Source: a virus
Length of the DNA: 64,000 nt
Reading direction: 5' to 3' (one strand)
Virus record (IMG/VR): IMGVR_UViG_3300010883_000015
Span: 16,696-80,695 of that record
Shown here: piece by piece, positions 10,901-64,000 of the stretch
How the letters are laid out: each line of letters starts with the position of its first letter
How positions within the stretch are numbered: position 1 is the first letter of the stretch
The notes under the pieces: model-generated
The model's database searches: none
The model's input: the letters and a program-made list of their open reading frames with translations, nothing else
Told to the model about the DNA's origin: nothing
Translations under genes and position numbers: made by a program

Positions 10901-13900
10901 CCCTAGAAAAAGCAAAAGCAGTAAGAACACAAGAAACACTTGCTATTGAATATAAATATAGAATTAAAGAACTTCAAAAAGTTTATGAAAAAGAATTAGC
11001 ACTTCTTAAAAATAATTTAGAGAAAAAGAGGGCGCTTGAAGCACGTTATGCAAACTCTGTAAGGATGGTTCAGGATACTTATGAACAGAAATACTTGGCT
11101 GGTCATGACAAGATGCGAGAGCGGATTCTACAAGATATTGAAGAGAGTTCAAAAAGTGAAATAGGGCTTTTAAAGTCAAGTCATAAGGAAGAAATCGACG
11201 AAATAAAAGATAAATTTAAAGATGAAGAAAACCTGATAAAACAACAATTAGGCATTAGAGATGATAACTCAGCATTGTCTGCTGATATCATAAATAAACA
11301 TTTAGATAATGAATATGACATAACAATAGAGTCTTTTGATAAAAAAGCCAAGGCTCAGTACAGTGCAAATAGTGAATATGTAAAGAATAGTATAGGTGAT
11401 AATGCCTCACAAGAGAAAAGACTAGAATTATATGAATCAGATTTAGCTAAAATTACAGAAGAAGCAAACACAAAGAGGGAGGCCCAGAAAGACAAATCAC
11501 TCAATAGATTGGCTACTTTAACTACTAACCATCAATCGCTGCTGGTCTTAGCCGAGAAGAAGAACAGCGCAGAAGTTTTAAAGGCTACTGGCGAGTTGCA
11601 AGATGAATTATTTAAGAATGATATCGAGAGCATGGAGTCAAGGCTAGGTGTGTCTCTTCCTGTTTTAAATTTAATAGTTGAAGAAGAAGCATATAAAAAA
11701 TATCTTAAAAAATTAGAAGATAGTGGTGATATCTCTGCGAATAGAAGGGGACAATTAGAGCAACTATATACACAAAAAATATTAAATCTCAGGAAAAGTG
11801 TTCTTGACCAATCTCTAGGTTTTGATTCTAATTATCTGAAATCTCACAAAGAAGATATTGCAACTCTTCTCAATGAAGAAAACGCAATGTTTAATAATTC
11901 GCTAAATCTTACTGAGGATTTATCGAACAATAGATTACTGAAAATGCTTGGCTATTCTAAGGAAGAAATAAAATTACTTGTTTCTAGAACGCAGATAGCA
12001 AAGACCATATCAATAGAAGAATTAAAAATAAAGAAAGAGACTGCGCTAAAGCTTCTTGCATTAGATAAATGGTACAACGGAGAAGCACAAGCAGTAGCTC
12101 GTCAGGCTGAGGTAGATAAAAGAGAAGAAGTTAAAGCTAATATGACTACTCTTTATGAGTCCAGAAGACGTGCAATTGCAGAAGGAGAAAAGGAAGAAAT
12201 AGAGGAACTTTCAAAATATAACGATGAGAAGATTTTAGAAAATAAGAGATATTTTAAAATATTAAGCAATATATTCTCACAAACACTTCTAGCAACCCGG
12301 TCTTCTTTAAATAAAATAGCAAAAATAGTCGGTGGTGCAACTATTGCATTAGGCGCTCTGTTTTCATTACTATCAGGAGAAAAAAATTCATCTTCAGTGA
12401 AGGAATTTAAAAAATATTTAGCTGGAATAACTAGGTCATTTAGTGCTTTCGGAGCAAGACTAGAGAAAACAGGGTCAGAAACAAAAGATTTCTTCAAGGG
12501 ATTAGGTGACGGAGTAAAAGGTGTTAGCAAAAGTGGAGTTACAAATATAACTACTTTGTTTGCTGGAATAATATCATTATTTAAAGAAGGAGGATTAAAA
12601 AAGGGGTTTTCTTCATTATCAAAAGGATTAGGAGACTTGGGGAAATCCACTAAGGAAAAGGGATCAAAAGGAGACCTGCTTAAGGGATTGGTCGGTGGAG
12701 TAAATAAAGCCAGTAAGGCGCTAGGAAATGTAGAATTAACTACAGGTGGTGGGCTTGCAGGAATGGCTAGCAATACAAAAGCAATATCAGGTGCGCTTTC
12801 TGCAATTGGTGGAAAGTTGGGTGCTATCTTGGGTGGAGTTGCTTCTACACTAGGATATGCAGCTATTGGTGTGGTTGTATTAGGCAAGGCATTAGGCAAA
12901 ATATTAGGAGTTGTTGGAAAGGCAATTTCAAAAATAGTAGAGTTGAGCAAGCAAGCCTTTGATTATATAACTGGTGGATTTAATCTAAATGTTTTCACTG
13001 CAATATCAAATATTACTAGTGATATTATATCACAGCAGACCGCTGCTATTGATAAAGCGAAATCAGACTTAGAGTCCTTGGAACAGCAATTATTGGCGAG
13101 GAAAATAACTAAAGAAGAATATGACGAAGCAAGAGCAGGTGGAATCGGATCGGTAGATGAAGTTGATATTCAGGGTGAAACAGAAACTGCGGTAAATGAA
13201 CTTTTTAAACAAGCAGAAATGTTTATGGGTGTGATACTTCAAGTTGCTCCAAGAGTAATGGAGATGTTTGCGGAAAAACTTCCTGCTTTATTTACTATGT
13301 TTAAAAATGCTGCAATAAGTCTTTTAGGCACAATCGAAGCCTACATGCCTAATTTAGTTATAAGTTTTGTTGATTCTATATTCAGAATTGCTCCTTCTAT
13401 TTTATCTGTACTGCAAGAAGTCCTTCCATCTATACTTACATTTGCTACCAATTTAATTGTTAAAGAATTACCTGCTCTTGCAAATATGTTTTACAGCATA
13501 CTCTTAACTTTTGGCGATATTATAATATCTTCTTTGCCGGATATTGTAACTGCAATAATAAAGCTTGTTCCTACTGTGACTTCGATAATACAAAATATGT
13601 TAAAAATATTTGGTGTTGTTGTAAAGGAAGTAATTAAAAATGCTGATGAAATAACTAAAGTGATTACCGATGCGATTGGGCCAATTCTTGCGACACTTGC
13701 AGATCAATTGTTTCCATTACTAGCTAGTCTTCTAAGTGTTTTAGTAAAATGGGCATTATCCTCTGCTACCAATTTGACTAAATTTGCTATCGATCTGATT
13801 GTTGGGTTTATGAACGCCCTGCCTGATATAATCACCAAAGTAATTGATTTACTACCACTAATAATTGAAGAATTAATATTAAGCATTGGGGATATAATAA

Positions 13901-23198: not shown

Positions 23199-23582
23199 TT
23201 ATAATTCAATTCTAATTTCTTCATAGTCTGAAATTTTACCCATTTTTTCAGCGGTATCATTTAATACAACCCCATTATTCCAACATTCAAAAGTAAGGTC
23301 GAAAGTAACGGATAAAGGGTTTAATCTTTCAAATTGAACTAATATTTTACATCTTTTATGTTTTTCATTTGTTTCAATATCAAAATGATCAAACGCCAAT
23401 TGAACTAATGCAAATTCTTGGTTTTCGTCTAATTTGTTAATAAATGTATCATCTAAAACTGAATAATAGTCTTTTTCTAAAGAGATATTGTTAGCATTTA
23501 TTATTAATTCATTAGGCAATGCAATAAAAAGCTTCTTTCCATTTTTAGTAAAAAAAGAATTGAATAGATTATTATCTGACAT
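23199..23582 (-). CDS. hypothetical protein
   Basis: ORF in minus-strand operon; start uncertain (23582 or 23594). Confidence 0.6.
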   Translation of the reverse strand: MSDNNLFNSFFTKNGKKLFIALPNELIINANNISLEKDYYSVLDDTFINKLDENQEFALVQLAFDHFDIETNEKHKRCKILVQFERLNPLSVTFDLTFECWNNGVVLNDTAEKMGKISDYEEIRIEL

Positions 23583-23874
23583 AATTATTACCAATAGATT
23601 CTACTGATGTAATCTCAATCAAATCAGTAGAGATCGTAACTTTAACATCTAATTCTTTTAGTAAATATAATATACACCAGTCTGGGCATAACCTTAATTT
23701 CTCATTTGAGATTGAACAATAAGCACTAAGATTTGAAGGGTTTATTTGTAATAACCTAGCTAAATCTTTTGAGTTTTTAGTTGGATTCCTTAAGATCCAA
23801 AGATCTCTTAATTTTGTAAATATGTCATTTCTAGGTAATTTTATTTTTTTATCACATTCTGATATAGTCATCAT
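23572..23874 (-). CDS. XRE-like helix-turn-helix protein
   Basis: SKDLARLLQINPSNLSAY HTH pattern; AAGGAG SD. Confidence 0.65.
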   Translation of the reverse strand: MMTISECDKKIKLPRNDIFTKLRDLWILRNPTKNSKDLARLLQINPSNLSAYCSISNEKLRLCPDWCILYLLKELDVKVTISTDLIEITSVESIGNNYVR

Positions 23875-42865: not shown

Positions 42866-43139
42866 TACTCAAATTGCGACTATAAGATTGAATTTATTAG
42901 ATCTAAATAAAAGCGCGAATGAGCCTCAATTTAAATCTTTAATAAGCGATGGATGGACTGTTATTTCTTCATTGGCGGTACAAGAAGAAGAACGACCTAC
43001 TTTAATTTTACTGTTGGCTCCCCCTAAAGAAGAAATCAGGGTTAAAGTTGAAAAGGAAATAAAGATAAAACTAATAATCATGATTATTATTCAAATATTA
43101 ATAGCAATTGTTTTAATAAAGGGAGGCCTGTATGCCTAA
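42852..43139 (+). CDS. hypothetical protein with C-terminal TM anchor
   Basis: LIIMIIIQILIAIVLI; GAGG SD before ATG 42852. Confidence 0.6.
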   Translation: MRSNNTQIATIRLNLLDLNKSANEPQFKSLISDGWTVISSLAVQEEERPTLILLLAPPKEEIRVKVEKEIKIKLIIMIIIQILIAIVLIKGGLYA

Positions 43140-43767
43140 GGTAATAGAAGAAATAGAAGTAGAAGAAGGTCAAAAAGTAGAAACAGAAAAAGTAGGGGAA
43201 TGGGTGCACCTAGATCAATTGGTGGAATGGGATCAGAATCCAAGATTTAACGACCAAGCGATAGATCAAATTGCTGATAGTATAAAAAAGTTTGGTTTTT
43301 CTTCTCCTATAATTGCTAGAAAAGCAGATAACAAAATAATTGCAGGACATACAAGATTTAAGGCTGCTCAGTCCTTAGGTATGCAATTTGTTCCTGTCCG
43401 ATTTATGGACTTGTCAGAAACAGAAGCAAAGGCTCTTGCCCTTGCCGATAACAGGCTCGGAGAGATAGCATCTTGGGACGACGGGCTGTTAGGTGACGTG
43501 CTATCTGAATTAAAGAAAGAAGGCGTAGATATGGACATATTGGGCTTTTCTCAACAAGAAGTCGATCAATTGTTAGGAAATTGGACTGATCCTTTTTGGG
43601 ATGAAGATGAACTTAATAGCAGTGAATTAAATGATGACGAAATAGAAGATAATGGTCAATCAATAATCTATATCACCGTAGCTATAAATAGAGCCAAAGA
43701 TACTAGTGATCTCATTACAGAATTGCTAAATAGCAACAACATAGAACATACAATTAAATTAAAATAA
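43132..43767 (+). CDS. ParB/Srx N-terminal-domain protein (DNA-modification-associated type)
   Basis: NPR, SIKKFGF..PII, IIAGHTRFKAA, LADNR; no HTH apparent. Confidence 0.88.
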   Translation: MPKVIEEIEVEEGQKVETEKVGEWVHLDQLVEWDQNPRFNDQAIDQIADSIKKFGFSSPIIARKADNKIIAGHTRFKAAQSLGMQFVPVRFMDLSETEAKALALADNRLGEIASWDDGLLGDVLSELKKEGVDMDILGFSQQEVDQLLGNWTDPFWDEDELNSSELNDDEIEDNGQSIIYITVAINRAKDTSDLITELLNSNNIEHTIKLK

Positions 43768-50938: not shown

Positions 50939-52102
50939 ATGTCTTTAAATAATAATAATATAGACCATATCTCTGAAAGTATGGAAAAAATTGCAGATGG
51001 GTTTGGATTCTGTTGTTTTTGGAGAACTCAATCATTTCGTCATACACCTTTTCAATTAAAAGACATGGCGCGAGCAAGTGGTTTCTCACAAACAATACTT
51101 GATTCATTCTCTGAGCATTCACTTAAGGCCTCAATCGGACTAGCTAAATATGACTCCCAATGGAAAAAGATTAAATTTAATAACCATAACATTGAAGCTA
51201 AGACTGTTCATGTAGATGATTCTACTGGAGCAATAACAGTTGAATTTCTTGGGTATGAGAAAATAACAGATCAAGAAGGCAAGAGAACGCAGGTAGATTC
51301 TATTGTGTTTGATAGTTATGGAAATCTATTGAAAACAGGAGTAACTGATGCTTCTAGGGAGTTTGTAAGGGCTGTTGACCACCATATGCATTTCTGGGGC
51401 AACAATGACATTTATGACAAGGTTACTAAGCCAATGTTGAAGTCTATGGATGCCCTTAGAATTAGTAGTTCTAATTATTATGTTATGAAATCACCTTCTA
51501 ATATAGAAAAAATAGACAAACTTAAAAACTTTCTATCTATGATTGGGTATGAATTCTTCACTTTAACTCAAGCGAAAGATAAGCAAACCCAGTCTGCTCT
51601 TTCTGCTCAGGTTCAAGATGCTTTGGCATCGAGGATTTCAGATGCGGAAGCCAAGGTTAAAAAATGGAATAGCCAAAACAGGGTTCATGGGCGATCTGAA
51701 TCGGCAATGTTAACTGAATTGCATGACATTCTTCAATTAGCTGAGGAGTTAGAGAGAAATCTAGGTTCTGACTTGAAGGGTATTAAAGAGATGACTGCTA
51801 ATGTTAGAAATGAAGCTAAGTCAATCATACATTCTCAGTCTCCTGCTGGAATGAATACTATGGCTTACAATTATTTTAAAACAATGGTTGAAGATGATAA
51901 TAATATTGCCCAAAAAGAATCGTATGGTAATACATATTATGTTAAAGTAGGAGATGATAATCAAGAATTTATCATTAATGACTCACTCAGAGCAGATGCG
52001 AAGAAGGTTGTTGAAAGTCTCGGATTTTATGCAGTGGTTGCTGTTGGTTGTATTGTCTTAAAGCCATTAAAGTCCCTAGATACATTGTCAGTTGATATCT
52101 AA
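50939..52102 (+). CDS. DUF6744-like protein (AAA+/VWA-associated)
   Basis: N-terminal G..FW, central R...YYV, C-terminal helical EELERNLG; recognised by pattern only. Confidence 0.5.
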   Translation: MSLNNNNIDHISESMEKIADGFGFCCFWRTQSFRHTPFQLKDMARASGFSQTILDSFSEHSLKASIGLAKYDSQWKKIKFNNHNIEAKTVHVDDSTGAITVEFLGYEKITDQEGKRTQVDSIVFDSYGNLLKTGVTDASREFVRAVDHHMHFWGNNDIYDKVTKPMLKSMDALRISSSNYYVMKSPSNIEKIDKLKNFLSMIGYEFFTLTQAKDKQTQSALSAQVQDALASRISDAEAKVKKWNSQNRVHGRSESAMLTELHDILQLAEELERNLGSDLKGIKEMTANVRNEAKSIIHSQSPAGMNTMAYNYFKTMVEDDNNIAQKESYGNTYYVKVGDDNQEFIINDSLRADAKKVVESLGFYAVVAVGCIVLKPLKSLDTLSVDI

Positions 52103-52124
52103 TATCATTCCCCAAAATGTCCCT

Positions 52125-52165
52125 GTTGTAGGGAGGCTCTATTGTCTCCCTACAACTTTATTTTT
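52125..52165 (+). terminator. intrinsic terminator
   Basis: GTTGTAGGGAGGC..GTCTCCCTACAAC plus T-rich tail. Confidence 0.8.
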
Positions 52166-52184
52166 AATACACACAGGAAAATAC

Positions 52185-52838
52185 ATGTCCCCTCCATTTA
52201 CCTTCTCTGAAACCTTTAATTTACAACCTGAAATATCTATATTGCCTGTTCTTTCTGAACTTCGAGCCAACTGGGCAGGGGTTCGTTATCGAATTGGCAT
52301 GTTTAATGATCCGGATTTTAAGCCTGTTATATCAAAAATATACCTACCTGATGATTCTTGTACATCTATTGATGATCAGTTTATGTTTGAAATAGGAGTG
52401 CTTGATCTAGGCGTAACCAATGTGTTGGAAATAATAAATGCCTGCAAGTATTTATTGGATGACAATATAGCTATATCTATTGTTCTTCCAACACTTGTTC
52501 CTCTTGGTAAGGTTCTTATTCAAGCTATTATTCATGTCTCTATCTCTAAGAATGGTATAGGCCCAACATTCATTACTACTTTTGAAAATTGTGTAAACTT
52601 TTCAAAAGGAATAAAAAGAACCGCTGGGAGCACACAGGAAGAGTATTATGAGGATGTTTCATTATATTTATATGATAGCCTAGAAAAAGAACGCGTCTGT
52701 AAAACTTTCGATAATATAAGTAACAATGATTATGCTCTTATATTGGGTGAATTCTCTTTAAATCTATGTGGGAATGCCTCTTCTGCTTTAAAGAGTACCG
52801 AGATAAATAAGATTATTGAAGATTACAACCTACAATAG
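52185..52838 (+). CDS. hypothetical protein
   Basis: AGGA SD before ATG 52185; the longer ORF-track start runs through the terminator. Confidence 0.65.
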   Translation: MSPPFTFSETFNLQPEISILPVLSELRANWAGVRYRIGMFNDPDFKPVISKIYLPDDSCTSIDDQFMFEIGVLDLGVTNVLEIINACKYLLDDNIAISIVLPTLVPLGKVLIQAIIHVSISKNGIGPTFITTFENCVNFSKGIKRTAGSTQEEYYEDVSLYLYDSLEKERVCKTFDNISNNDYALILGEFSLNLCGNASSALKSTEINKIIEDYNLQ

Positions 52839-52951
52839 TCATCTTTATGCTTATGGCAATGCCTCGATTTTGTCGGGGCTTTGTTATGTATGAGAGCGCG
52901 ATCATAAGTGTTTCAAATTATTTAAATAAATTTATTCTTTTCATTATCTTT

Positions 52952-53050
52952 ACAATTGCTTGAATGCTCGAAACGTCCGAAGCTATCGAACACATGGGCA
53001 TAATCAACCTTGCTAACTAGAAATAATTTCCATTAAAATTAAGCTATAAT
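52952..53050 (+). promoter_or_regulatory. promoter with upstream ACAWTTGCTT-N6-TCGA element and TATAAT box
   Basis: Same architecture at 55672-55759 and 61639-61737. Confidence 0.55.
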
Positions 53051-53127
53051 ATACATGTGGAAAGAAACACATAATGAAAATCTCATTCATTATTTTACTT
53101 AAATCATTCATAAAAAAAGGAAATGTT

Positions 53128-54345
53128 ATGAATACCAACTCAACCCTCATTAAGAACTCTAAACTATTAGATGGTGTCAGGACTGAACTTAATTCTAAAT
53201 TCTTAGAAAGAGAAGATGAAATCAATTGCATACTTACTGCTCTTGTTAGTAATACAAATGTTCAATTTATAGGAGCGCCAGGAACCGGAAAGTCTGCTTT
53301 GGCAAATTCTGTTTCACACTTGTTAAATTGCTCTTTCTTTAAAGTGAATTTGGATCAAGATTTAGATCCTGATTTTGTTATAGGCCATATCTCATTAAAA
53401 GAAATGAGAGATAATGACCGAATAATCCGTAACACATCAGGCAAGATTGCAGATGGACAACTTGTCTTCTTGGATGAGTGTAATAAATGTAATAGCGCCA
53501 TGAAAAATGCATTGCTTTTACCTCTTAACGAACGTCAGGTTGATATAGGCGATGGTATACCAAGAGATACAGAGATCAGAAGCGTTATTGGTGCCAGTAA
53601 TGAGTATCCCGGTTGTACTTCAATCGACGACGATACCGATCATCTTGTTCACGATCCAAACTGGGATAGATGGGCGCTAAGAATGGAGGTTAGATATATC
53701 GAAGCCGATCACAATTTCAAGGATCTTTTGATTAATAGATTTACAGTTGGCAAGGTTGATAAATCTTTAGCTATTGACCTCTCTATTATAGATGAAATGA
53801 GGATGGCTCTTTATAGTGTGAATTTAGATAATGTTATGGATCTAATATGTAAATTTAGAACCTTACTGCAAAGACAAGCAATAAATCTATCAGACCGTAG
53901 GTGGATGACAATTTGTAAATTGATTTCAGCACAAACAGTTATGCGCGGATCTCTTACTGCTAAGGGTGAAGACCTTATGATACTTGAACATGCTCTGTGG
54001 AGAACACCAGAAGAAAAGTCTATTACAGACATGGTTATACAAGACAATATTAAGTCACAATATATTGAATCAAAGAAGATTCTCGGTATCGTTAAGGCGA
54101 CAATTAAATCTACACTTGAAGCAATAAAAGAAGATGACATTAATTGCAAAGACACTAAAAGCAAAAGTCGTGCAGTTGCAATGCTTACTTCTTCAAAGGA
54201 TTTACTGGTAGATCAAGTTCGCTCTGCTGGATCTAAGAATTGGACTTGCCCAAAGGCACTGAAAGTTAAAGAAGAAATAGGTGGGCTTATTCAATCTTTA
54301 GGAATTGAAGCACACAAAAGAATGAACTTAAACATAAATCTATAA
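53128..54345 (+). CDS. MoxR/RavA-like AAA+ ATPase
   Basis: FLEREDEI, GAPGTGKS, FLDE, GASNE.P, DRW, SDRRW, LW. Confidence 0.9.
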   Translation: MNTNSTLIKNSKLLDGVRTELNSKFLEREDEINCILTALVSNTNVQFIGAPGTGKSALANSVSHLLNCSFFKVNLDQDLDPDFVIGHISLKEMRDNDRIIRNTSGKIADGQLVFLDECNKCNSAMKNALLLPLNERQVDIGDGIPRDTEIRSVIGASNEYPGCTSIDDDTDHLVHDPNWDRWALRMEVRYIEADHNFKDLLINRFTVGKVDKSLAIDLSIIDEMRMALYSVNLDNVMDLICKFRTLLQRQAINLSDRRWMTICKLISAQTVMRGSLTAKGEDLMILEHALWRTPEEKSITDMVIQDNIKSQYIESKKILGIVKATIKSTLEAIKEDDINCKDTKSKSRAVAMLTSSKDLLVDQVRSAGSKNWTCPKALKVKEEIGGLIQSLGIEAHKRMNLNINL

Positions 54346-54374
54346 ACTTAAACAATTGTATTACGAGGTGTAAA

Positions 54375-55088
54375 ATGAAAATATATAGAAAAAACGTATC
54401 TGATGGTAAGAAAAAGACTTTTAAGGTTTTAGATAATTATATACTGGACATAGCTGGTTATGAAAATGTCGTATTAATATTACATCCTAAATATTATAGA
54501 AAGTCAAATAATCGGATTATGAACATGGTGGTAAAGCATACAAGCAAGTGCAACACTGTGTTTGTGTTGAAGGCAGAAGTTAAGCAGGATGCATATTATT
54601 TTCAGTCCTATATCAAAGTTTCTGTCATGCTAGAAGACTGCTCTTGGTCACATCTTATGGACGGGGTATGGGATTCGTCGAAAAGCAGCCTTAATCCTGA
54701 TCCCGCTTGTAGGTCTCTCTATTATGAGGAAAAGTCTAAACTTGGCTTACTTAAAGATTGCGAGTCTATCATATCCGAAGGGTTAACTATTTTGCTTGCC
54801 AATCTAGCTCCCAAGCATAATGAAGATGAGGATGAAGATGAAGATGAGGGTAACCTCGATGGGGGGCACCGAATGACATTCCAATACCCAGTCGAATTCC
54901 ATTACAACGGTGAAGACTTTCATTTTTTGGCAGAGGTTGATGATATCGAAGACTCTTGGGTAAGGGTTAGCGATGCCTTTAACGTAAATGTCAAGACAGT
55001 AAATGATGAAGTGGAAGTGTCAGTCTATTGTATCAATGCAGAAACAAAGAAAATAATAGGAGGCAAGATCTCGGTAGAGACTTGGTAA
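54375..55088 (+). CDS. hypothetical protein with acidic EDEDEDEDE linker
   Basis: GAGGTG SD. Confidence 0.7.
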   Translation: MKIYRKNVSDGKKKTFKVLDNYILDIAGYENVVLILHPKYYRKSNNRIMNMVVKHTSKCNTVFVLKAEVKQDAYYFQSYIKVSVMLEDCSWSHLMDGVWDSSKSSLNPDPACRSLYYEEKSKLGLLKDCESIISEGLTILLANLAPKHNEDEDEDEDEGNLDGGHRMTFQYPVEFHYNGEDFHFLAEVDDIEDSWVRVSDAFNVNVKTVNDEVEVSVYCINAETKKIIGGKISVETW

Positions 55089-55183
55089 AAGATATTGGCA
55101 ACTTAGCTTTTTCCTTTTTTGCTAGGTTGTTAAACCTCGTAGGTGTGGCTTTAATGTACATTAAAGACCTAATCTACTGAGGA

Positions 55184-55229
55184 GGCTAGATGGTGGGCGT
55201 GAGATACCCGCTGTCTAGTCATTTTTTTT
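55184..55229 (+). terminator. intrinsic terminator
   Basis: GGCTAGATGGTGGG..CCCGCTGTCTAGTC then A and T8. Confidence 0.85.
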
Positions 55230-55485
55230 ATAATCGAGTAATCAGTAAGTGATTTATAAATTGAACAAAAGAACTAGAAGCTTGGCTGTGATCTAAATTT
55301 GCAATAGAGATAAATAGCATTTATGTCATTTAAACGCTCAAAAAGGGCTAAATTAAGCCTTTAGATTCAATATCCGTCTATCTGTATCAATTCCAATATA
55401 GAGCTTAAATTATAGCCGATTCTGAGAGGGTTGAATTTAGGTTAGTGTTTTCGTGACAAGAAGGCAGTCAAATTGCTTGTGTACT

Positions 55486-55594
55486 ATATATAAAATAATT
55501 AATTAAATTATAATTAATTATAATTATAAATTAAATTACTAATCTTAAATTATAATTTATTAATCTTAAATTATAAATTAAATTACTAATATAA
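55486..55594. repeat. ~110-bp almost pure A/T repeat tract
   Basis: No G on + strand; internal repeats TAAATTAAATTACTAAT x2 and TAATCTTAAATTATAA x2. Confidence 0.75.
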
Positions 55595-55671
55595 CATGAC
55601 AACCAGCTATCGTTATCTGATAATTGCAAGATCGCAAATATTAAGCAAATTACAAGCTTGACAATTGCTTG

Positions 55672-55759
55672 ACAATTGCTTAATACGTCGAAAGGCTCGA
55701 ACGCATAGCGATTAACTAGCGTTCAAAGTAAAGCGGATCGCATAAATAAAGCATATAAT
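55672..55759 (+). promoter_or_regulatory. promoter with upstream ACAWTTGCTT-N6-TCGA element and TATAAT box
   Basis: Same architecture as 52952 and 61639. Confidence 0.55.
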
Positions 55760-55814
55760 ATTATATGCCAAAAGAACAAAGAGACAAAGACTCTCAAAAT
55801 AGAAAGGAAATAAC

Positions 55815-57323
55815 ATGGACTTTAAACCAAAAGCAAAAAAGAACCTAAGCAGAAGAGTAAGTGACTTTTCTCGTTTTCTACATGATCAAAGACATTTCTA
55901 CGGAACCAATGCATTCAGGCAAACAAGAAAACTAGAAAATAGATTAGCTTATGAATTTAAAGTAAAGTGCAACCTTGAAATTACAAATGAAGAATTAAAC
56001 TCTGATATGGAATTGTTTGCTACTGAAATGTTTTCAAGAATGTATGAAGATTCAGATATTTCTGAGACTGTTGATAAACAATGGGCAGAAGACATACATG
56101 AAATCTTAGATGCTCAGTCAGAGTTTCAGTCAATAAAAAGAATGGCTAGAAGGGATCCAGATCTGGCTTCTTTAGCTACTGCTTACACATTCAATCACTT
56201 TAAAGAAGAAATATGCTCAGTTATTACATACAGAAAACAAGAAGAGCAGGAAAACAAAAAGAAAGAACAAGAAAGAGAACAAGGACAAGAAAAGTCTAAA
56301 GGAAAAGGTCAGGATCAAGAACAGAAAGAAAAAGGAGAAAATAGTCAAGACAAGGCTGTCTCTAAGCTACCTGAATCATTGAAGAACGAGTTCCTCTCAA
56401 AAGCAATGGATTTTTCTGAAAGTGTTGAAGAAATAGGGGAACTAAAAGAAGCAATGTCAGGAATCGGGTCGTTGGGATCAACAAAGGAATTAAGCACTGA
56501 AAGAACAGAGCTAATTAATTCATTGACAACAAATGGATCACTTAAAAACATCTTAAAGATGGTTGGAAGATTGAAAAAGTTAATGAATTCTTTTCCCGCT
56601 CTTGTTAAGTCTAAAAGAAAAGAAAAGATTTATGAGATAGAGCAGGACAGGGCACCTAAAGAACTCAGCAGGGAGCGAATGTTAGCTGCTAATGATGACA
56701 CTTTTGACCAGTATTGTTTTAGATTTGCTACTCGTAAACAATGGAAGAAAAAGAAAGGGAACGGTCAAGACGAATCGGGACTAGGTCCAATACTTATGTG
56801 TATCGATACATCTGGTTCTATGCATGGGGAAAGAATTGAACTTGCAGTAGCTTTAGCTATTGCAACCGCAAGTATTGCAAGCGATACAAAAAGAGAATTT
56901 AAGGCGGTAACATTCAACAAAAAGTTGGGACATGAATTCTACATACCAAAGAAAGCTAGAAATTCAGATGTTCTAACTGTTTTAAAGATGATTTCAAAGC
57001 TAGGTGCAAGTGGAGGAACATCATTTAATCCACCTGTTAAATGGGCGGTAGATCAAGCTTTGAAACACCCAAAATCAGACATATTGTTCTTGACTGACGG
57101 AACAGGGAGTTGTTCTACGAAAATGTCTAGTATGTTAGAATTTGCCAAGAAAAAGAGAGGGCTAAGACTCTTTACTGTATTGATTGGGGAAGATGATTAC
57201 CCGCATGCAGGTGGTATCGAAGAGATATCTGATGGAGTTATCAACGTCAAAGAACTTACAGAAAACAAGTCAATTAATGAATTGGCAAGACTGATGAAAT
57301 CAATCAAAACAAGAAAACTATAA
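55815..57323 (+). CDS. VWA-domain protein (ViaA-like partner of MoxR ATPase)
   Basis: MIDAS DTSGSM, GGTSF, FLTDG; GP.L.CID. Confidence 0.9.
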   Translation: MDFKPKAKKNLSRRVSDFSRFLHDQRHFYGTNAFRQTRKLENRLAYEFKVKCNLEITNEELNSDMELFATEMFSRMYEDSDISETVDKQWAEDIHEILDAQSEFQSIKRMARRDPDLASLATAYTFNHFKEEICSVITYRKQEEQENKKKEQEREQGQEKSKGKGQDQEQKEKGENSQDKAVSKLPESLKNEFLSKAMDFSESVEEIGELKEAMSGIGSLGSTKELSTERTELINSLTTNGSLKNILKMVGRLKKLMNSFPALVKSKRKEKIYEIEQDRAPKELSRERMLAANDDTFDQYCFRFATRKQWKKKKGNGQDESGLGPILMCIDTSGSMHGERIELAVALAIATASIASDTKREFKAVTFNKKLGHEFYIPKKARNSDVLTVLKMISKLGASGGTSFNPPVKWAVDQALKHPKSDILFLTDGTGSCSTKMSSMLEFAKKKRGLRLFTVLIGEDDYPHAGGIEEISDGVINVKELTENKSINELARLMKSIKTRKL

Positions 57324-58939: not shown

Positions 58940-59248
58940 ATGGAAACTAAATACGAATACGAATTTATATTGATTAGTAGCGATAACAAAGAATCAGAAA
59001 ATGTAATCTGGTACGATTGCAAACTAGATCAAATAGAAAAAATAGCTACTGAATTTATTGATTTATCTGGAAAATATAAACATATATCTATTAAACAGTG
59101 GGATCTCGAATATGAAGAATTTACAAACGAATTCGATCTACACCAAGAACTACCACACCGAAATGCAGAAGAAATACGACTAAAACTTATAAACAAAATT
59201 AAAGAACTTAATGCAGGATCAATTAATGATATTTACTACCAAAGTTGA
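58940..59248 (+). CDS. hypothetical protein
   Basis: AAGGAGG SD. Confidence 0.7.
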   Translation: METKYEYEFILISSDNKESENVIWYDCKLDQIEKIATEFIDLSGKYKHISIKQWDLEYEEFTNEFDLHQELPHRNAEEIRLKLINKIKELNAGSINDIYYQS

Positions 59249-59444
59249 AACTAAACAATCTATTAAAGAACTTAATGAAGGATCAATTCCCAAACACCAC
59301 GATGTTAAATTATACATAAACCCAGATCACATAGTCTCTATTATGGACGAGGGTGTAAAAGGATCCCTTATCAGATTAACTAATGGAAATTATGTCGTGG
59401 TTAAAGAATTGTTTGAAAGCGTTGTATACGGGCAAAAAAAATAA
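59226..59444 (+). CDS. FlbD-family-like small protein
   Basis: LYINPDHIVSI..SLIRLTNG.YVVVKE..E.V pattern. Confidence 0.55.
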   Translation: MIFTTKVETKQSIKELNEGSIPKHHDVKLYINPDHIVSIMDEGVKGSLIRLTNGNYVVVKELFESVVYGQKK

Positions 59445-59552
59445 ATTGCGATTACGCAATACCTGTATATTTCTGCAATACTTAAAATGAGCTAACGAAA
59501 GTTATGGTTCTACCTATGAGAAGGTGTTGTGTTAAGTAAATAGAAAAGTGGT

Positions 59553-59584
59553 AAAGGAGGGAGTAATTTCCCTCCTTTTTTTTG
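59553..59584 (+). terminator. intrinsic terminator
   Basis: AAAGGAGGGAG..TTCCCTCCTTT plus T-tract. Confidence 0.9.
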
Positions 59585-59748
59585 ACTACTTGCAATGAAT
59601 GAAACCTTATCTTGTTAATTGTGCAATTTAACTTGCACCAGTTGAAACTTATTGCATATAATTGTATTATATGAATACTCCATATGGTATTCCCTCTGTA
59701 TCGGGATTGTAGAGGATCTTTAAAATAATATGAAACTTTCAGGAGACA

Positions 59749-60507
59749 ATGATGCCAAGGCTATATAAGAAAAACAAGAAGAATCCTACTCCTCGCGAGG
59801 TCGAGTCCTCGGGAATAAAACGTATGAAATGTGAAACCGAAAGGCATCACAGAGCGTTCCTACTCTATGCTATGCAGTCCTTATCTGCTCGCAAGGCATT
59901 GCCTATCAGTCGTATCATGAGTGTGTCTCATACTGCGGTTCAGCAATGGAGGAAAAAGTATCGTTGGGAGTCAAGAGTGACCTCGCAAACAATTGAAGTT
60001 GAGGCGCAGCAATTATACAAGGCTTTGTATGGCGGTACTTATGGGGTTGTAGAGATTAGTCAGATTGAAAAGAATATAGCAACTCCTGTTAGCGCCTCGT
60101 CTCCTGTTTCTCAAAGTGTAGCAGACAGCGTTACTGATGCTATTAAGCAGGCGCAGAGCCAGCCGACTACTGTGCACGGTAAAGAGATGAAGAAGAAGCA
60201 GATGATGATACTAGATGCTGCGATTGGTTATGTTGCGCAAGGTATTAGGGATCAGAGTATCAGGAGGAACATACGCGACCTTCCCGTACTAATTGGTCTG
60301 CGCAATGAGCTAGCTGGTGACGGAGTCAAGGCAGATGGTAGGACAATAATGATCGAGAGTTTGCGAGTTAAGGATGCTAAGGCAAGCGGTGGTAATGTTA
60401 TAGAGGCAATGTTTGAAGATGCACTAGAATTGACATTAATATTAAAGAACTTAAAGGGTAATGAAGCAAGTGCCCAAATACACCCAAAGGAAACAAGTAA
60501 TGAGTAG
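59749..60507 (+). CDS. putative terminase small subunit (N-terminal HTH)
   Basis: RAFLLY..ISRIMSVSHTAVQQWRKKYRWESRV HTH plus helical C-terminus; AGGAG SD. Confidence 0.5.
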   Translation: MMPRLYKKNKKNPTPREVESSGIKRMKCETERHHRAFLLYAMQSLSARKALPISRIMSVSHTAVQQWRKKYRWESRVTSQTIEVEAQQLYKALYGGTYGVVEISQIEKNIATPVSASSPVSQSVADSVTDAIKQAQSQPTTVHGKEMKKKQMMILDAAIGYVAQGIRDQSIRRNIRDLPVLIGLRNELAGDGVKADGRTIMIESLRVKDAKASGGNVIEAMFEDALELTLILKNLKGNEASAQIHPKETSNE

Positions 60508-60892
60508 TAAATTTGAAAAGTTAAGTATCAATTTAGATGCACCGATAATGGAAGAGTTGTTAGTTCGGACTCGTCCTTTGCAGGACCCTAATCAAGATGA
60601 GTGTTTACGCGAGTATCAACTAGGTGGCACACATAGTAATCGTGATGTTAGGCTTATCCTTGATACTGACACCTTAGAGACGTTGCTGTGCATAGCTAGG
60701 ATTAGTCGTACAGGTAGGGTTATTCTGAACCGTGCAGGTATCAAGATGAAGGTTAAGCGAGCCTCAACAGGTCATATATATGAGACGTTACATTTGACTG
60801 GTTTACAGCCTGTTCCTGAGCAAGCACCTACAAGTATAAAGATTCCGACAGATGAGTATTCTGCTCGTGATTGGTTAAAGTGGGGAGGTTAA
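60500..60892 (+). CDS. hypothetical protein
   Basis: AAGGA SD before ATG 60500. Confidence 0.65.
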   Translation: MSSKFEKLSINLDAPIMEELLVRTRPLQDPNQDECLREYQLGGTHSNRDVRLILDTDTLETLLCIARISRTGRVILNRAGIKMKVKRASTGHIYETLHLTGLQPVPEQAPTSIKIPTDEYSARDWLKWGG

Positions 60893-61018
60893 TTACTTGG
60901 TGAAGTATGCGTGTTTTCCGTTTGTAAGAAATGCGCCTAACTTGCACTAAAACTGGACCCAAAAAGCATTTAGTTGCAAAATAATCCATTTAATGCCTTG
61001 AAGTTGCAATTAGGTTGC

Positions 61019-61345
61019 AATTCAGGGTGTTATTGGTTTCAATTAAAAATGTACTGAATTCAGATTGGTTATTCTTTTAATTAAAAACGCAACTGTCCAA
61101 TTCAGGATGGTTTTCTGTTTTATTAAAAACGTAAGTGCCCACTAGCTCTGGTTGCACTGAAACTAATTGGTATTCCAGTATCAGTTTTAGTGATACTAAT
61201 TAGTGCTCCTGATTAGTGATACTAATTAGTGATACTAATAAGGGCCGTAACAAAGTTACATGTTACGATTACTAATTAGTGCTACACGCGTAACGTAACA
61301 ATGTTTCGTAACGTAACAATGTTTCGTGTTACGGAACTAATTAGT
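61019..61345. repeat. complex repeat array A
   Basis: AATTCAG-N19-AAAAAYG at 61019, 61057, 61099; ACTAATTAGT at 61195, 61221, 61271, 61336; 18-bp tandem CGTAACGTAACAATGTTT x2 at 61289-61324. Confidence 0.85.
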
Positions 61346-61638
61346 TGTCCATTTGCTCTACTGGTATGTTTGGATCTGGATCGGTTGTTGTTTGCAAGAT
61401 CAATCTTGAACTGACAGAATGCTATATTTTGTGCTCTTTGTAGCGTGTTAATGCATAGCTTTAAAGCTCTATATCTGCCGTTTATAGCGCTTTATAGCCG
61501 TTTCTATATGTATAGATAGCAAGCAAGACAGATGTTCTAAGATCGATGCACCGATAAAAATGTATGATGTGTGAACTGATGCTCATTACGCTCATGATCG
61601 TCTGAATTGCTGTCAATATATAATTTAACATTCATTTA

Positions 61639-61737
61639 ACATTTGCTTATTATGTCGATACGTAGCGCCTTTTAGACGTTCTCAGTTATATTCCGAAATA
61701 GACTGAATAATCACATATCACATACATGCTTTATAAT
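61639..61737 (+). promoter_or_regulatory. promoter with upstream ACAWTTGCTT-N6-TCGA element and TATAAT box
   Basis: Same architecture as 52952 and 55672. Confidence 0.55.
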
Positions 61738-61778
61738 ATAGATATGCAATTCAGCATATTTTCAAAAAGGAAGACAAA

Positions 61779-62009
61779 ATGTCAGCTATATATCTCTCAA
61801 TACTTTCTGTTCTAGAAGCTCTAGAAGAAACCGGACACGCTACATTCATTAAAGGCGAAGACGGTTGCTCTCAAATCTACGAGATAAACGATCTATGGAT
61901 CAGTTTTGGAGAAAGTGGAATCAATTGCATCGGTGAGAACAAAAAAAATGCAGACGGAAGCTTTCCAGTTCTATGGACATCAGACGTAAAAGGCGGTGAA
62001 GAATGTTAA
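61779..62009 (+). CDS. hypothetical protein
   Basis: AAGGA SD after promoter. Confidence 0.65.
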   Translation: MSAIYLSILSVLEALEETGHATFIKGEDGCSQIYEINDLWISFGESGINCIGENKKNADGSFPVLWTSDVKGGEEC

Positions 62010-62398
62010 AATTATTTATTAATTATCTAAGCGGAGCATATCCAGACATGAAACTGGAATTTAATGACATTGGATGTGTCGCTATTCAGTTTCCAGAAAT
62101 TGAAAAAAATAAAGGCAAAATCTGCTTTGTTGATATGCAGGATGAAGATGAGTCAGTAGCGCTACATTGTATTCATTGGAAGACTGATGGAGATGATCGG
62201 TGGTTTTTTCGGCGTGTTTTTGAATGCGAGTTCAACACAGAAGAACAAATCAAAACTGGAATTGATTTTATGATGGAGTCTGATTCCAGCACTATAACAT
62301 TGGAAGAGTTGTATTCTGGATGCGATACATGCTGGGGTCCTAATAATGAAACGTATCCATCAGGAATATATGATGTTCAGCAAAAAGGAGTTTCGTAA
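62003..62398 (+). CDS. hypothetical protein
   Basis: Overlapping start; acidic. Confidence 0.65.
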   Translation: MLKLFINYLSGAYPDMKLEFNDIGCVAIQFPEIEKNKGKICFVDMQDEDESVALHCIHWKTDGDDRWFFRRVFECEFNTEEQIKTGIDFMMESDSSTITLEELYSGCDTCWGPNNETYPSGIYDVQQKGVS

Positions 62399-62625
62399 TG
62401 TCAACGAATCAGCGCAAAAAAACTAAAATAGCTATCGGAGCTTATTCAGTTTGTATCGATGCAATAGAATATATCATCACTCATGCGAAAGGCATGGACG
62501 ATGTGGTGGACAGAAATGGACACATCTTACAAGAGACAGTTGAGCAATTGCTTCATCAGTATGAATATCTATCAGAAAAAGAAACAGAAACCGTAATATC
62601 ATTCTTTAATGGAGTTTCACAATGA
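62398..62625 (+). CDS. hypothetical protein
   Basis: AAGGAG SD, TAATG coupling. Confidence 0.65.
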   Translation: MSTNQRKKTKIAIGAYSVCIDAIEYIITHAKGMDDVVDRNGHILQETVEQLLHQYEYLSEKETETVISFFNGVSQ

Positions 62626-62993
62626 CAATCAATAAACAAAACATAGAATCAGTTGCAACAGCACATGAGCGTAATTGCTTTATACCAGTATCATATATCG
62701 CATTAGACGGAAGCTATTGGATATTTGAAACTAAGCATTGGAGCGGAGTCACATACAGTGGATCAGCAGAGCGAGCGATTAGTATGATAGAGAACGACTC
62801 TTGCGAACTGTGGCTCTATAAATGGCATGGAACCGATATAAAGATATTGGACTCACTGCTCATATCTACGAAAGGAGCAAGCTTTCCTGATTCTGTCGAT
62901 GATTTTAAATCTGCTCCACTTGTAATACAGAATGAGTATAAGCAATTTATTAAGAATCGAAATAACGAAACTATACAAAAAGTAGGTGCGTAA
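62622..62993 (+). CDS. hypothetical protein
   Basis: GGAG SD, ATGA coupling. Confidence 0.65.
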   Translation: MTINKQNIESVATAHERNCFIPVSYIALDGSYWIFETKHWSGVTYSGSAERAISMIENDSCELWLYKWHGTDIKILDSLLISTKGASFPDSVDDFKSAPLVIQNEYKQFIKNRNNETIQKVGA

Positions 62994-63163
62994 TGGAGAG
63001 AATATCAGAATTAGTGCCGACAGAAGAAGACTCTGTCTTGAACTCGTGCAGAGAGATCGCTCTGTCAGTCTCTTATACGTCAGTCATTCTTCCGATTGCA
63101 TGCTTCGTTGTTTCAGGGTCAATCGCAATCGCATTTCTAATCTTCGCAAAACTATTAATCTAA
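62993..63163 (+). CDS. 56-aa membrane peptide, not in ORF track
   Basis: TAATG coupling; MERISELVPTEEDS...VILPIACFVVSGSIAIAFLIFAKLLI. Confidence 0.6.
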   Translation: MERISELVPTEEDSVLNSCREIALSVSYTSVILPIACFVVSGSIAIAFLIFAKLLI

Positions 63164-63177
63164 TAACAGGAGTGACA

Positions 63178-63345
63178 ATGAATCAATTTATATTTGGAAT
63201 ATCTTTAACCGTGTACATGGCTTGCTTGTATTCTATATGCACCTCATATTCTTACACGGAGCCATTTATCGGGCTTGTTATATCAACAGTGTGTATCATT
63301 GGAACGGGAGTGTTTGCTGTTGTGAGAGACGCTATACAAGACTGA
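63178..63345 (+). CDS. 55-aa two-TM membrane peptide
   Basis: AGGAG SD before ATG 63178; hydrophobic. Confidence 0.6.
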   Translation: MNQFIFGISLTVYMACLYSICTSYSYTEPFIGLVISTVCIIGTGVFAVVRDAIQD

Positions 63346-63353
63346 TATAAGCG

Positions 63354-63930
63354 ATTAATTAGTGTAGCCATTAGCTCGGTTACTTTAATTAATCACAAAG
63401 GAAAACTAATTAGTCAATTCAGATTGATACTGAGATTAAAGAAAAACGTTGAGATCCACTGATCTGGTTAGCACTAATTAGTTTGTTACGATTTGTTACG
63501 ATCAGTTGTTACGATTTGTTACGTTTCACTAATTAGTGTGCTTCGATTTATTGCAATTACTAAATAGTGCGCTTGGAATATTCTACAAATTACTAAATAG
63601 TTTGTTACGATTTGTTACGTTTTACTAATTAGTTTGTTTCGGATATTCTACATTTTACTAAATAGTGTGTTTCGAAATTACTAAATAGTTTGTTTCAGAC
63701 GTTTCGCTAATACTAAAAGTATTAAGTGGAAATAAATAAACAACTAATTAGTAATCCGAAAAGGACTCTGGCTACCGTCTACTAATTAGTAGCGAGACGC
63801 TAGGCACTAGATCAGTTTCTTTAAATATATTTATTTGCAAGTGATTGATTCCGTCGGTGATTATTTGCTTAATTGCTCACACCAGAATTCATACAGCTTT
63901 TAGTTTCTATTAAAAACGTAAATGTCCACT
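63354..63930. repeat. complex repeat array B
   Basis: ACTAAWTAGT at 63405, 63473, 63528, 63559, 63592, 63624, 63657, 63680, 63743, 63781; TTGTTACG x6; 45-bp bipartite element at 63416 and 63886. Confidence 0.9.
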
Positions 63931-64000
63931 GAATTACAGAATCTCGATAGCTAGGGCGGTGTAGACGGAAAGCTCTACGATCTCGTGTCTATCGGCATCA

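Follow-up and report, generated by a model that had tools for sequence, protein, structure and literature searches.

What is the role of two blocks of interleaved short repeats that stand on either side of a few small genes, just behind a putative packaging gene? The question is raised by a 64,000-nucleotide stretch of viral DNA (the window), bases 16696-80695 of the 80,695-bp virus contig IMGVR_UViG_3300010883_000015, the end of the window being also the end of the contig. The source genome is that of a tailed phage with a GC content of ca. 33%, and the contigs related to it derive from marine metagenomes. Near its right end lie the non-coding arrays A and B, separated by a cassette of six small ORFan open reading frames (ORFs) and preceded by the genes of p252, a protein resembling the small terminase subunit TerS, and of p130. 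An initial annotation, made from the DNA letters alone, had read the arrays as a protein-coated landmark, such as a packaging or terminal-repeat boundary, a T5-like injection-stop signal, a replication origin, a centromere-like site, or hot spots of recombination for the shuffling of cassettes. The answer that we favor, with a probability of roughly 0.4, is that they are phased arrays for terminase recognition or close to a terminus, and that their duplication came with the acquisition of an ORFan cassette of early genes. Positions refer to the window unless they are given as genome positions or follow the name of a related locus (L and G numbers).

Architecture of the arrays

Independent assemblies give identical arrays; A and B are thus real, and an assembly artefact is excluded. 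Two JGI (Joint Genome Institute) contigs (L045 and L046) match the window at 99.8-99.9% without insertions or deletions; contigs of four sequencing runs, from four studies, match it too, and those of runs X2 and X3 include the arrays themselves (for the runs, assembled Logan contigs were compared, for which depth is given per contig only).

Both arrays are built from three kinds of units. The first is a 10-bp palindrome, ACTAATTAGT, with ten exact copies (61195, 61221, 61271, 61336, 63405, 63473, 63528, 63624, 63743, and 63781; 0.19 in shuffled sequences), four in A and six in B; its variant ACTAAATAGT has four copies, in B only (63559, 63592, 63657, and 63680; 0.27 expected from shuffles). 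All 14 palindromes are exact although the spacers between them diverge. The second unit, TGTTACG or its complement CGTAACA, has 11 of its 16 window copies inside the two blocks, with 3.1 expected for the window. All six TGTTACG copies of B lie on the plus strand, four of them phased at 10-13 bp, while the second part of A carries the unit in both orientations, including an exact 18-bp tandem at 61289-61324. The third is a 45-bp bipartite element, AATTCAK-N19-AAAAAYG, present in five exact copies, all on the plus strand (61019, 61057, 61099, 63416, and 63886; 0.04 expected). Array A also holds a run with a 13-bp period (61187-61238), and array B has units of ca. 32 bp at spacings of 31, 33, 32, and 33 bp, equal to three helical turns. 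Phased protein binding would be expected to produce such spacings (10, 13, and about 32 bp).

By k-mer repeat score, A and B rank as the most repetitive places of the window. The initial description thus holds in its counts of the palindrome and its variant (4 + 10), in the bipartite element, and in the enrichment of the motifs over shuffled sequence; an alignment of A with B agrees that the two are no simple duplicates and that the order of their motifs is rearranged. As for further arrays elsewhere, ACTAATTAGT and ACTAAATAGT are confined to the two blocks in the whole 80,695-bp contig, but a third site with variant boxes, C0, was found 10 kb upstream.

Neither array is a promoter-terminator composite. 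Weak sigma70-like hexamers can be made out by eye in the 45-bp element and in the 32-bp units, whereas a promoter scan placed no plus-strand sites there; the promoter of the cassette and a weak hairpin (63364-63383) are placed outside the arrays. No match was found by an Rfam search over 59000-64000.

The p252-p130 gene pair

As initially described, array A follows a terS-like gene and one further ORF: p252 comes first, then p130, and A starts 48 bp after the latter. The family matches of p252 to the Terminase_5 and Phage_terminase helix-turn-helix (HTH) models are weak and lie under the curated cut-offs, and its feature-level likeness to a DUF1804/Terminase_5 cluster in the Atlas scores 0.94. 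Two lines of evidence say more. In the distant relative L073, a p252-like gene, a 104-aa homologue of p130 (hhalign probability 97%, E 2.8e-11), and the gene of the large terminase subunit TerL follow one another with overlapping or abutting codons. Secondly, a three-chain model of TerL, p130, and p252 as the partner reached 0.66, the best of three controls staying at 0.00; it is a prediction rather than a measurement, whose calibration is only rough because the model was built on our own alignments, and whose score may owe something to likeness with solved structures, TerS-TerL complexes being of a known kind. In that calibration, 58 of 80 solved complexes came up to this mark, as did 2 of 110 mismatched pairs. 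The score dropped to 0.00 once TerL was replaced, in one of the three controls; contact agreement in the runs was at least 45%, and the pLDDT (predicted model confidence) of the partner at least 58. The modelled interface joins residues 202-245 of p252 with residues 2-47, 208-217, and 272-281 of TerL; this contact of the C-terminal helices supports, as a model, TerS-TerL binding. From the gene order and coupling in L073 together with the complex model, p252 is probably a true small terminase. Fold searches (Foldseek, VIA) were uninformative: the best that they offered for p252 was a generic helical hairpin (Z no higher than 7.7), and for p130 nothing exceeded Z 2.6; PDB sequences, searched by profile, yielded no matches.

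Conservation and turnover among relatives

The closest relatives (P0002-P0004) have 59-82% TerS identity, one of them on an 86-kb contig. Homologues of p252 were collected from 29 metagenome loci and two IMG/VR loci. What lies 3' of p252/p130 differs among these loci in at least six configurations: TerL (L073); Zn93 at a distance of 57 bp (L072); a single array and then Zn93 (G001/L044); arrays followed by an inverted VWA-MoxR-DUF6744 block (L053, L057, and L043); a small minus-strand ORF, then the same block forward (L065-L067); and an array, then the forward block, with p130 absent (L047-L051 and L054). In the phage studied here the order is A, ORFan cassette, B, third array, second cassette. 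Arrays occur directly 3' of p252/p130 in about ten divergent lineages, each with motifs of its own and whatever genes come next. Among the 16 relatives with a p130 homologue, the top repeat window falls within 600 bp after p130 in eight to nine, and in L047 and L050, which have no p130, arrays occupy the same place. The lineage-specific motifs include AATTGATAGTAAT, CTTTCAG, GGGGTGGAC, TTGGCAAC, and TCTTCTT..AAGAAGA palindromes. The core CTAATTAG was seen again only in L052, L069, and L043, and the half-sites TTAGT/ACTAA show no general enrichment after p130 in the relatives.

Since fast-evolving arrays stand so constantly at the 3' end of p252/p130, whatever follows, they would appear to be a cis site for the products of this terminase-associated gene pair; a difference of motifs between lineages is what one would expect if such a site co-evolved with a neighboring DNA-binding protein. 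The proposal of a protein-coated landmark such as a packaging boundary gains support from this comparison, while the expectation of arrays at syntenic positions in relatives was borne out for their place, in about ten lineages, though not for their motifs, which differ, nor for seven relatives that lack an array. A recombination hot spot, also proposed initially, finds direct support in the comparative data, with at least six configurations after p130 and cassette proteins that are ORFans, and is compatible with a landmark role.

The simplest arrangement is that of G001 (79 kb; the record of L044/L063), in which a single AT-rich array with a 13-bp period (AATTGATAGTAAT) occupies the site, occurs once in the 79 kb, and is followed after ca. 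0.65 kb by Zn93, with no cassette. The two ends of G001 (bases 1-2088 versus 77232-79172) are direct copies over ca. 2 kb at 80-94% identity, and the record, although labelled 'linear, 100% complete', is likely a circular assembly closed through two strain variants. Because G001 is effectively closed with one array, the cassette and the second and third arrays would be an expansion in the lineage of the present phage.

Lineage-specific repeats are found upstream of p252 as well. The same lineage-specific 7-mers on either side of terS gave no general signal against cross-locus controls, the exceptions that flank terS on both sides being TTGCAA in this phage and TTGCCAA in L050. By our table count, 14 of the 31 contigs end within the first tenth of the available upstream length of p252, which fits either a physical end or a junction where conserved DNA meets hypervariable DNA. 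The most extreme array among the relatives is that of L058 (11200-11500), where ca. 25 copies of (GAG)CTTTCAG fill about 300 bp right after the p130 homologue.

Proposed terminase recognition and known packaging sites

If the arrays are a terminase landmark, A and B would be phased clusters of candidate binding sites in a junction of more than 5 kb that starts at the p252/p130 operon. An oligomeric small terminase would bind the repeated units through its N-terminal HTH domains, perhaps together with p130, and the spacings of 10-13 and about 32 bp would let the protein bind cooperatively or wrap the DNA. TerL would then be brought in by the C-terminal helices of p252, and the site would serve as a landmark for the initiation of packaging, with cleavage, or for a genome end. 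We infer that the ancestral state was a single array, as in G001, and that an ORFan cassette of early genes, bringing a promoter of its own, entered this array by recombination; the array would have been duplicated in the process, leaving related but rearranged copies on both sides.

One close counterpart is the pac site of SPP1, in which three sets of direct repeats lie around terS (PMC4737164). In SPP1/SF6 (boxA, boxB, and boxC; pacL-pacC-pacR) as well as here, several sets of short direct repeats are clustered at, and here adjoin, the small-terminase gene. Both would have a ring-forming TerS that binds the repeats by its N-terminal HTH domains (putatively so in our case), and in both the motifs are poorly kept between related phages (PMC4737164). 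The SPP1 site, however, spans a few hundred bp, overlaps the promoter and start of terS, and is unique in its genome, whereas the present arrays lie downstream of terS/p130, add up to over 900 bp, hold 14 palindromes, have a 2-kb cassette in their midst, and share their motifs with each other and, with one mismatch, with C0.

Several observations weigh against terminase recognition. Seven relatives have no array after p130, and 14 boxes over 900 bp are far above known pac sites. A packaging signal should be unique, and C0 repeats the same grammar 10 kb upstream, before another gene block. Between terS and p130 of the relative L052 stands an almost identical palindrome, CCTAATTAGG, which is also found singly after terminators at three cassette boundaries, ca. 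80 bp before a conserved promoter, where it looks regulatory; moreover, the p252 HTH sequences of this phage and of L052 are strongly different despite the common core of their boxes.

Gene regulation as the main rival

These last points lead to the main rival, which we consider unlikely overall yet a serious contender: ACTAAWTAGT would be a site for an HTH dimer, of phage or host origin, and would form, together with the 45-bp element, a header a few hundred bp upstream of the promoters of early units. Looping between A and B could silence or time the cassette, and the repeats could act as recombination substrates in the manner of the promoter(early)-stem-loop elements (PeSLs) of T4-type phages. 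The layout of the contig speaks for this, as the common grammar heads three gene blocks on the plus strand and always in one orientation: C0 precedes the block at 50939, A that at 61779, and B the next cassette, and each block has a sigma70-like promoter and a AAAAAGGAA leader 340-860 bp further down. The boxes of C0 (ACTTATTAGT), mutually identical, are one-mismatch variants of the A/B motif and occupy an AT-rich gap of 700 bp between a terminator and a block of DUF6744-like, MoxR, and VWA genes. The single boxes of L052, where the promoter is of the extended -10 type, point the same way, as do the arrays of L050, which stand before a DUF6744-like unit and a MoxR unit alike, and the ORFan nature of the cassette genes, typical of hyperplastic early regions (PMC2839356). 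On the other hand, the boxes overlap no promoter and sit 350-450 bp upstream; in most relatives the motif is restricted to the terS locus; the arrays of L053, L057, and L043 stand at a junction of convergent genes, where they would have no promoter to act on; the arrays lack the promoter-terminator make-up already mentioned; and, judged by Pfam cut-offs and PHROGs, no regulator gene except p252 is found in or beside the cassette.

Two regulatory systems invite comparison. PeSLs are likewise repeated intergenic modules that flank ORFans in a hyperplastic region and plausibly drive modular shuffling (PMC2839356, PMC4122927), but they are compact units of promoter plus stem-loop, unlike A and B, which are long, built of many motifs, and hundreds of bp away from promoters. 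The terminator-box-promoter module of L052 looks PeSL-like and fits better than A/B. This module is repeated between small-gene cassettes (L052:5610-8240) and consists of a terminator hairpin, CCTAATTAGG, ca. 80 bp, and the promoter AAGTGCTAGATCTCAATTTGGTATACT. In lambda, the operator clusters OL and OR flank the immunity cassette; similarly, two clusters of one palindromic site here flank a small cassette at a distance of ca. 2.3 kb, and looping is conceivable. Unlike lambda, the cassette has no repressor gene that we found, the sites number 4 + 10 instead of 3 + 3, and they lie off the promoters.

The cassette, the sequence beyond the contig end, and a possible terminal repeat

The description of the interval between the arrays as one promoter and six small genes, two of them for membrane peptides, was confirmed: a sigma70-like promoter precedes six tightly packed ORFs, the last two of which (56 and 55 aa) are hydrophobic. 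None of the six has a family above the Pfam cut-offs or a place in PHROGs, and no DNA-binding domain was seen in them; the 131-aa protein has one relative among 5.8 billion clusters.

The contig is incomplete. Its right end falls 70 bp past array B, inside a further repeat array, and L045 (4291-6711) extends 2.4 kb past it; L046 and one Logan contig also reach beyond. This third array has other motifs, namely GCTCTAYGATCTC...TATCGACGTTATAGA units and then four copies of ATGTCAA, and GATC is only mildly enriched in it. After it, L045 has a promoter, TGCTATAAT, with the same AAAAAGGAA leader as the cassette, a 326-aa ORF with a Rho_N/SAP-like N-terminus (recognized by eye), a 130-aa membrane ORF, and then another copy of the spacer element TCTATATG(T/C)ATAGATAG; the palindromic TCTATATGTATAGATAG of the spacer behind array A is repeated in this extension. 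Arrays A and B do flank the six ORFs, as initially stated, but a third array and another cassette of small genes follow beyond the contig end, and C0 lies 10 kb upstream, so that a closed bracket is too strong a term: the arrays are part of a junction region of more than 5 kb. In the same spacer, 3' of the first array (61440-61530), stands a AGCGCTTTATAG / TATAGC element that recurs at the same relative position in L044 (11500-11540) and L068; shared with two distant relatives, it may be a conserved core site.

Such a succession of arrays and cassettes could also belong to a long direct terminal repeat of the T5 or SPO1 type, the arrays marking the ends of the repeat or a pause in ejection, and the region being the host-takeover DNA that enters first. 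SPO1- and Twort-like phages have long terminal repeats and are among the best cultured relatives by TerL, although at ca. 24% identity, and the cassettes are small, promoter-led, and ORFan, and include membrane peptides. The T5 repeat offers a close structural parallel: its three untranslated repeat regions have common elements, with 1.8-4.3 kb of pre-early genes between them, and there as here a variable stretch of small early genes, 2-4 kb long, sets the blocks apart (bioRxiv 10.1101/866236). The T5 regions, however, are conserved in order among T5-like phages and have paired DnaA boxes in their inverted repeats; the arrays here are lineage-specific, their motifs are unconserved among relatives, and no cluster of TTWTNCACA was found in or near them. 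Furthermore, the TerL of this phage is not T5-like. The T5 analogy is therefore structurally apt but fails on DnaA boxes and on conservation, and an injection stop of this type, one of the initial suggestions, is not upheld. The two ends of the 80.7-kb contig do not overlap, G001, in effect a circle, has a single array and lacks a cassette, and the cassette proteins have no PHROG match, all of which makes a terminal repeat improbable in our view.

One may combine these ideas with terminase recognition: a small terminase in two parts (p252 + p130) would use arrays A, B, and the third as its recognition 'barcode', and these would delimit a short, terminally redundant, first-entering segment with swappable ORFan cassettes for host takeover, the arrays co-evolving with TerS and loading new early genes at the genome end by recombination. 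This scheme is speculative, and we hold it to be rather improbable as a whole.

Less likely readings: replication, partition, or neutral repeats

A replication origin had been suggested as well. The boxes would be iterons for an initiator and the AT-rich 13-bp run an unwinding element, A, B, and C0 being multiple or auxiliary origins in the manner of P4, in which ori and crr share one motif. Direct-repeat units with phased spacing, several arrays with one common motif, the AT-rich 13-bp tandem run present both in A and at the same site of G001, and the position of C0 in an AT-rich gap of 700 bp would all suit an origin. But the adjacent DNA-binding protein, p252, models as a partner of TerL and not as an initiator, DnaA boxes are lacking in the search just cited, the primase-helicase and recombination genes are 27 kb away, and the GC skew only mirrors gene orientation. 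We give an origin no better chance than a terminal repeat.

Still less can be said for a partition centromere (type sopC/parC) of a plasmid-like prophage, to which we attach hardly any credence. Its appeal lies in short-palindrome units downstream of a gene for a DNA-binding protein, just as sopC lies after sopB. Among the ORFs scanned, however, there is no ParA-type ATPase, integrase, or protelomerase; the ParB-like gene is located in a DNA-modification cluster (43132-43767), whereas the neighbors of the arrays, in contrast to type I systems (sopC/parS), are the terS-like gene and p130; and again p252 models as a partner of TerL. The centromere-like site of the initial annotation is thus disfavored.

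Lastly, the arrays may be a neutral by-product, that is, minisatellite-like expansions or scars of recombination in a non-essential junction, with no dedicated binder. The high plasticity of the region in relatives, the absence of arrays from some of them, and the complete turnover of motifs between lineages agree with this. It is nonetheless very improbable, as 14 exact 10-bp palindromes were kept while their spacers diverged, the spacing within the bipartite element is fixed, and arrays recur at this locus across many lineages. Also, none of the single-nucleotide polymorphisms among three assemblies falls inside a box or a TGTTACG unit, though these polymorphisms are few.

Significance

For nearly all uncultured marine phages, neither the packaging signals nor the ends of the genome are known. 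If the arrays are a terminase landmark, they would provide a marker, readable from sequence, of the start of packaging, of TerS specificity, and of the place where early genes are loaded, in a widespread group of marine siphophages, as well as a natural series of TerS/array pairs for studying how an HTH ring reads phased repeats. If they are operators instead, they would reveal an early regulon of a phage and, beyond the T4 group, a shuffling system of the PeSL kind. Whichever reading is right, the comparison by itself shows a terS-p130 pair that is conserved and has fast-evolving arrays behind it, at a hot spot of rearrangement.

Feature coordinates and neighboring genes

Cultured phages offer little orientation: megablast and tblastn searches with the region and with p252 gave zero matches to them, TerL is at most ca. 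24% identical to that of any cultured phage, and Acinetobacter phage Mystique, which was compared, is too distant to inform. An IMG/VR scan for paired ACTAATTAGT returned 41 loci, none of them related, and single-sequence scans with p252 and TerL gave no matches. The features of the locus and the main landmarks of the genome are collected in the table.

Table. Location of the features described (window positions, unless marked as genome)
Feature	Position	Strand	Remarks
Site C0	50334..50600	+	partial element 50334, 45-bp-type element 50451, ACTTATTAGT x3 (50536, 50556, 50589)
Terminator and promoter for terS and p130	59553..59670	+	strong terminator 59553-59578, TTGCAA/TTGCAC boxes, sigma70-like TTGAAA-17-TATTAT 59642-59670
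p252, probable small terminase	59749..60507	+	N-terminal HTH; C-terminal helices modelled on the TerL N-terminus
p130, conserved partner ORF	60500..60892	+	overlaps terS; no recognizable fold
Four TTGCA(A/C) boxes	60940..61017		directly 3' of p130; read from the sequence
Array A, part 1	61018..61143	+	three tandem 45-bp bipartite elements (AATTCAG-N19-AAAAAYG...CCACT), spacing 38 and 42 bp
Array A, part 2	61162..61345		ACTAATTAGT x4 plus degenerate copies, including the 13-bp-period run
Spacer	61346..61778	+	TATAGC repeats, palindromic TCTATATGTATAGATAG, promoter ATCACA-16-TATAAT (61710-61737), AAAAAGGAA leader
Six-ORF ORFan cassette	61779..63345	+	76, 131, 75, 123, 56, 55 aa
Cassette ORFs	61779-62009, 62003-62398, 62398-62625, 62622-62993, 62993-63163, 63178-63345	+	tightly packed
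Array B	63354..63930	+	ACTAAWTAGT x10 plus 2 degenerate; TGTTACG x6; 45-bp element near either end (63416, 63886)
Third array, start	63931..64000	+	units GCTCTAYGATCTC...TATCGACGTTATAGA; ca. 270 bp more in L045:4221-4500
TerL	genome 856-2520	-	
Portal	genome 6612-8117	-	followed by head proteins
Tape measure protein			2210 aa

A few neighboring features deserve mention. A 100-aa ORF on the minus strand (23572-23874), in a minus-strand block among tail-fiber genes, has an XRE-like HTH (NSKDLARLLQINPSNLSAYCS) recognized by eye alone; a regex search for XRE-type HTHs returned none. In L044, a GC-rich non-coding stretch after a Zn-ribbon ORF (12200-12800) contains repeated GCTAATGCC and 'gggtagggtag' and is partly duplicated at the opposite end of the contig. 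A Zn-ribbon ORF of the present phage (genome 151-432, L001), with an NrdR-type zinc-ribbon match just under the Pfam cut-off, is kept beside TerL or terS in L043, L044, L072, and L073. Finally, the trio of genes for a DUF6744-like protein, a MoxR-type ATPase, and a VWA protein (50939-57323; loci L047-L067) stays with the terS-like gene in almost every relative and takes at least three different orientations or positions; such linkage suggests a conserved module beside the packaging genes.

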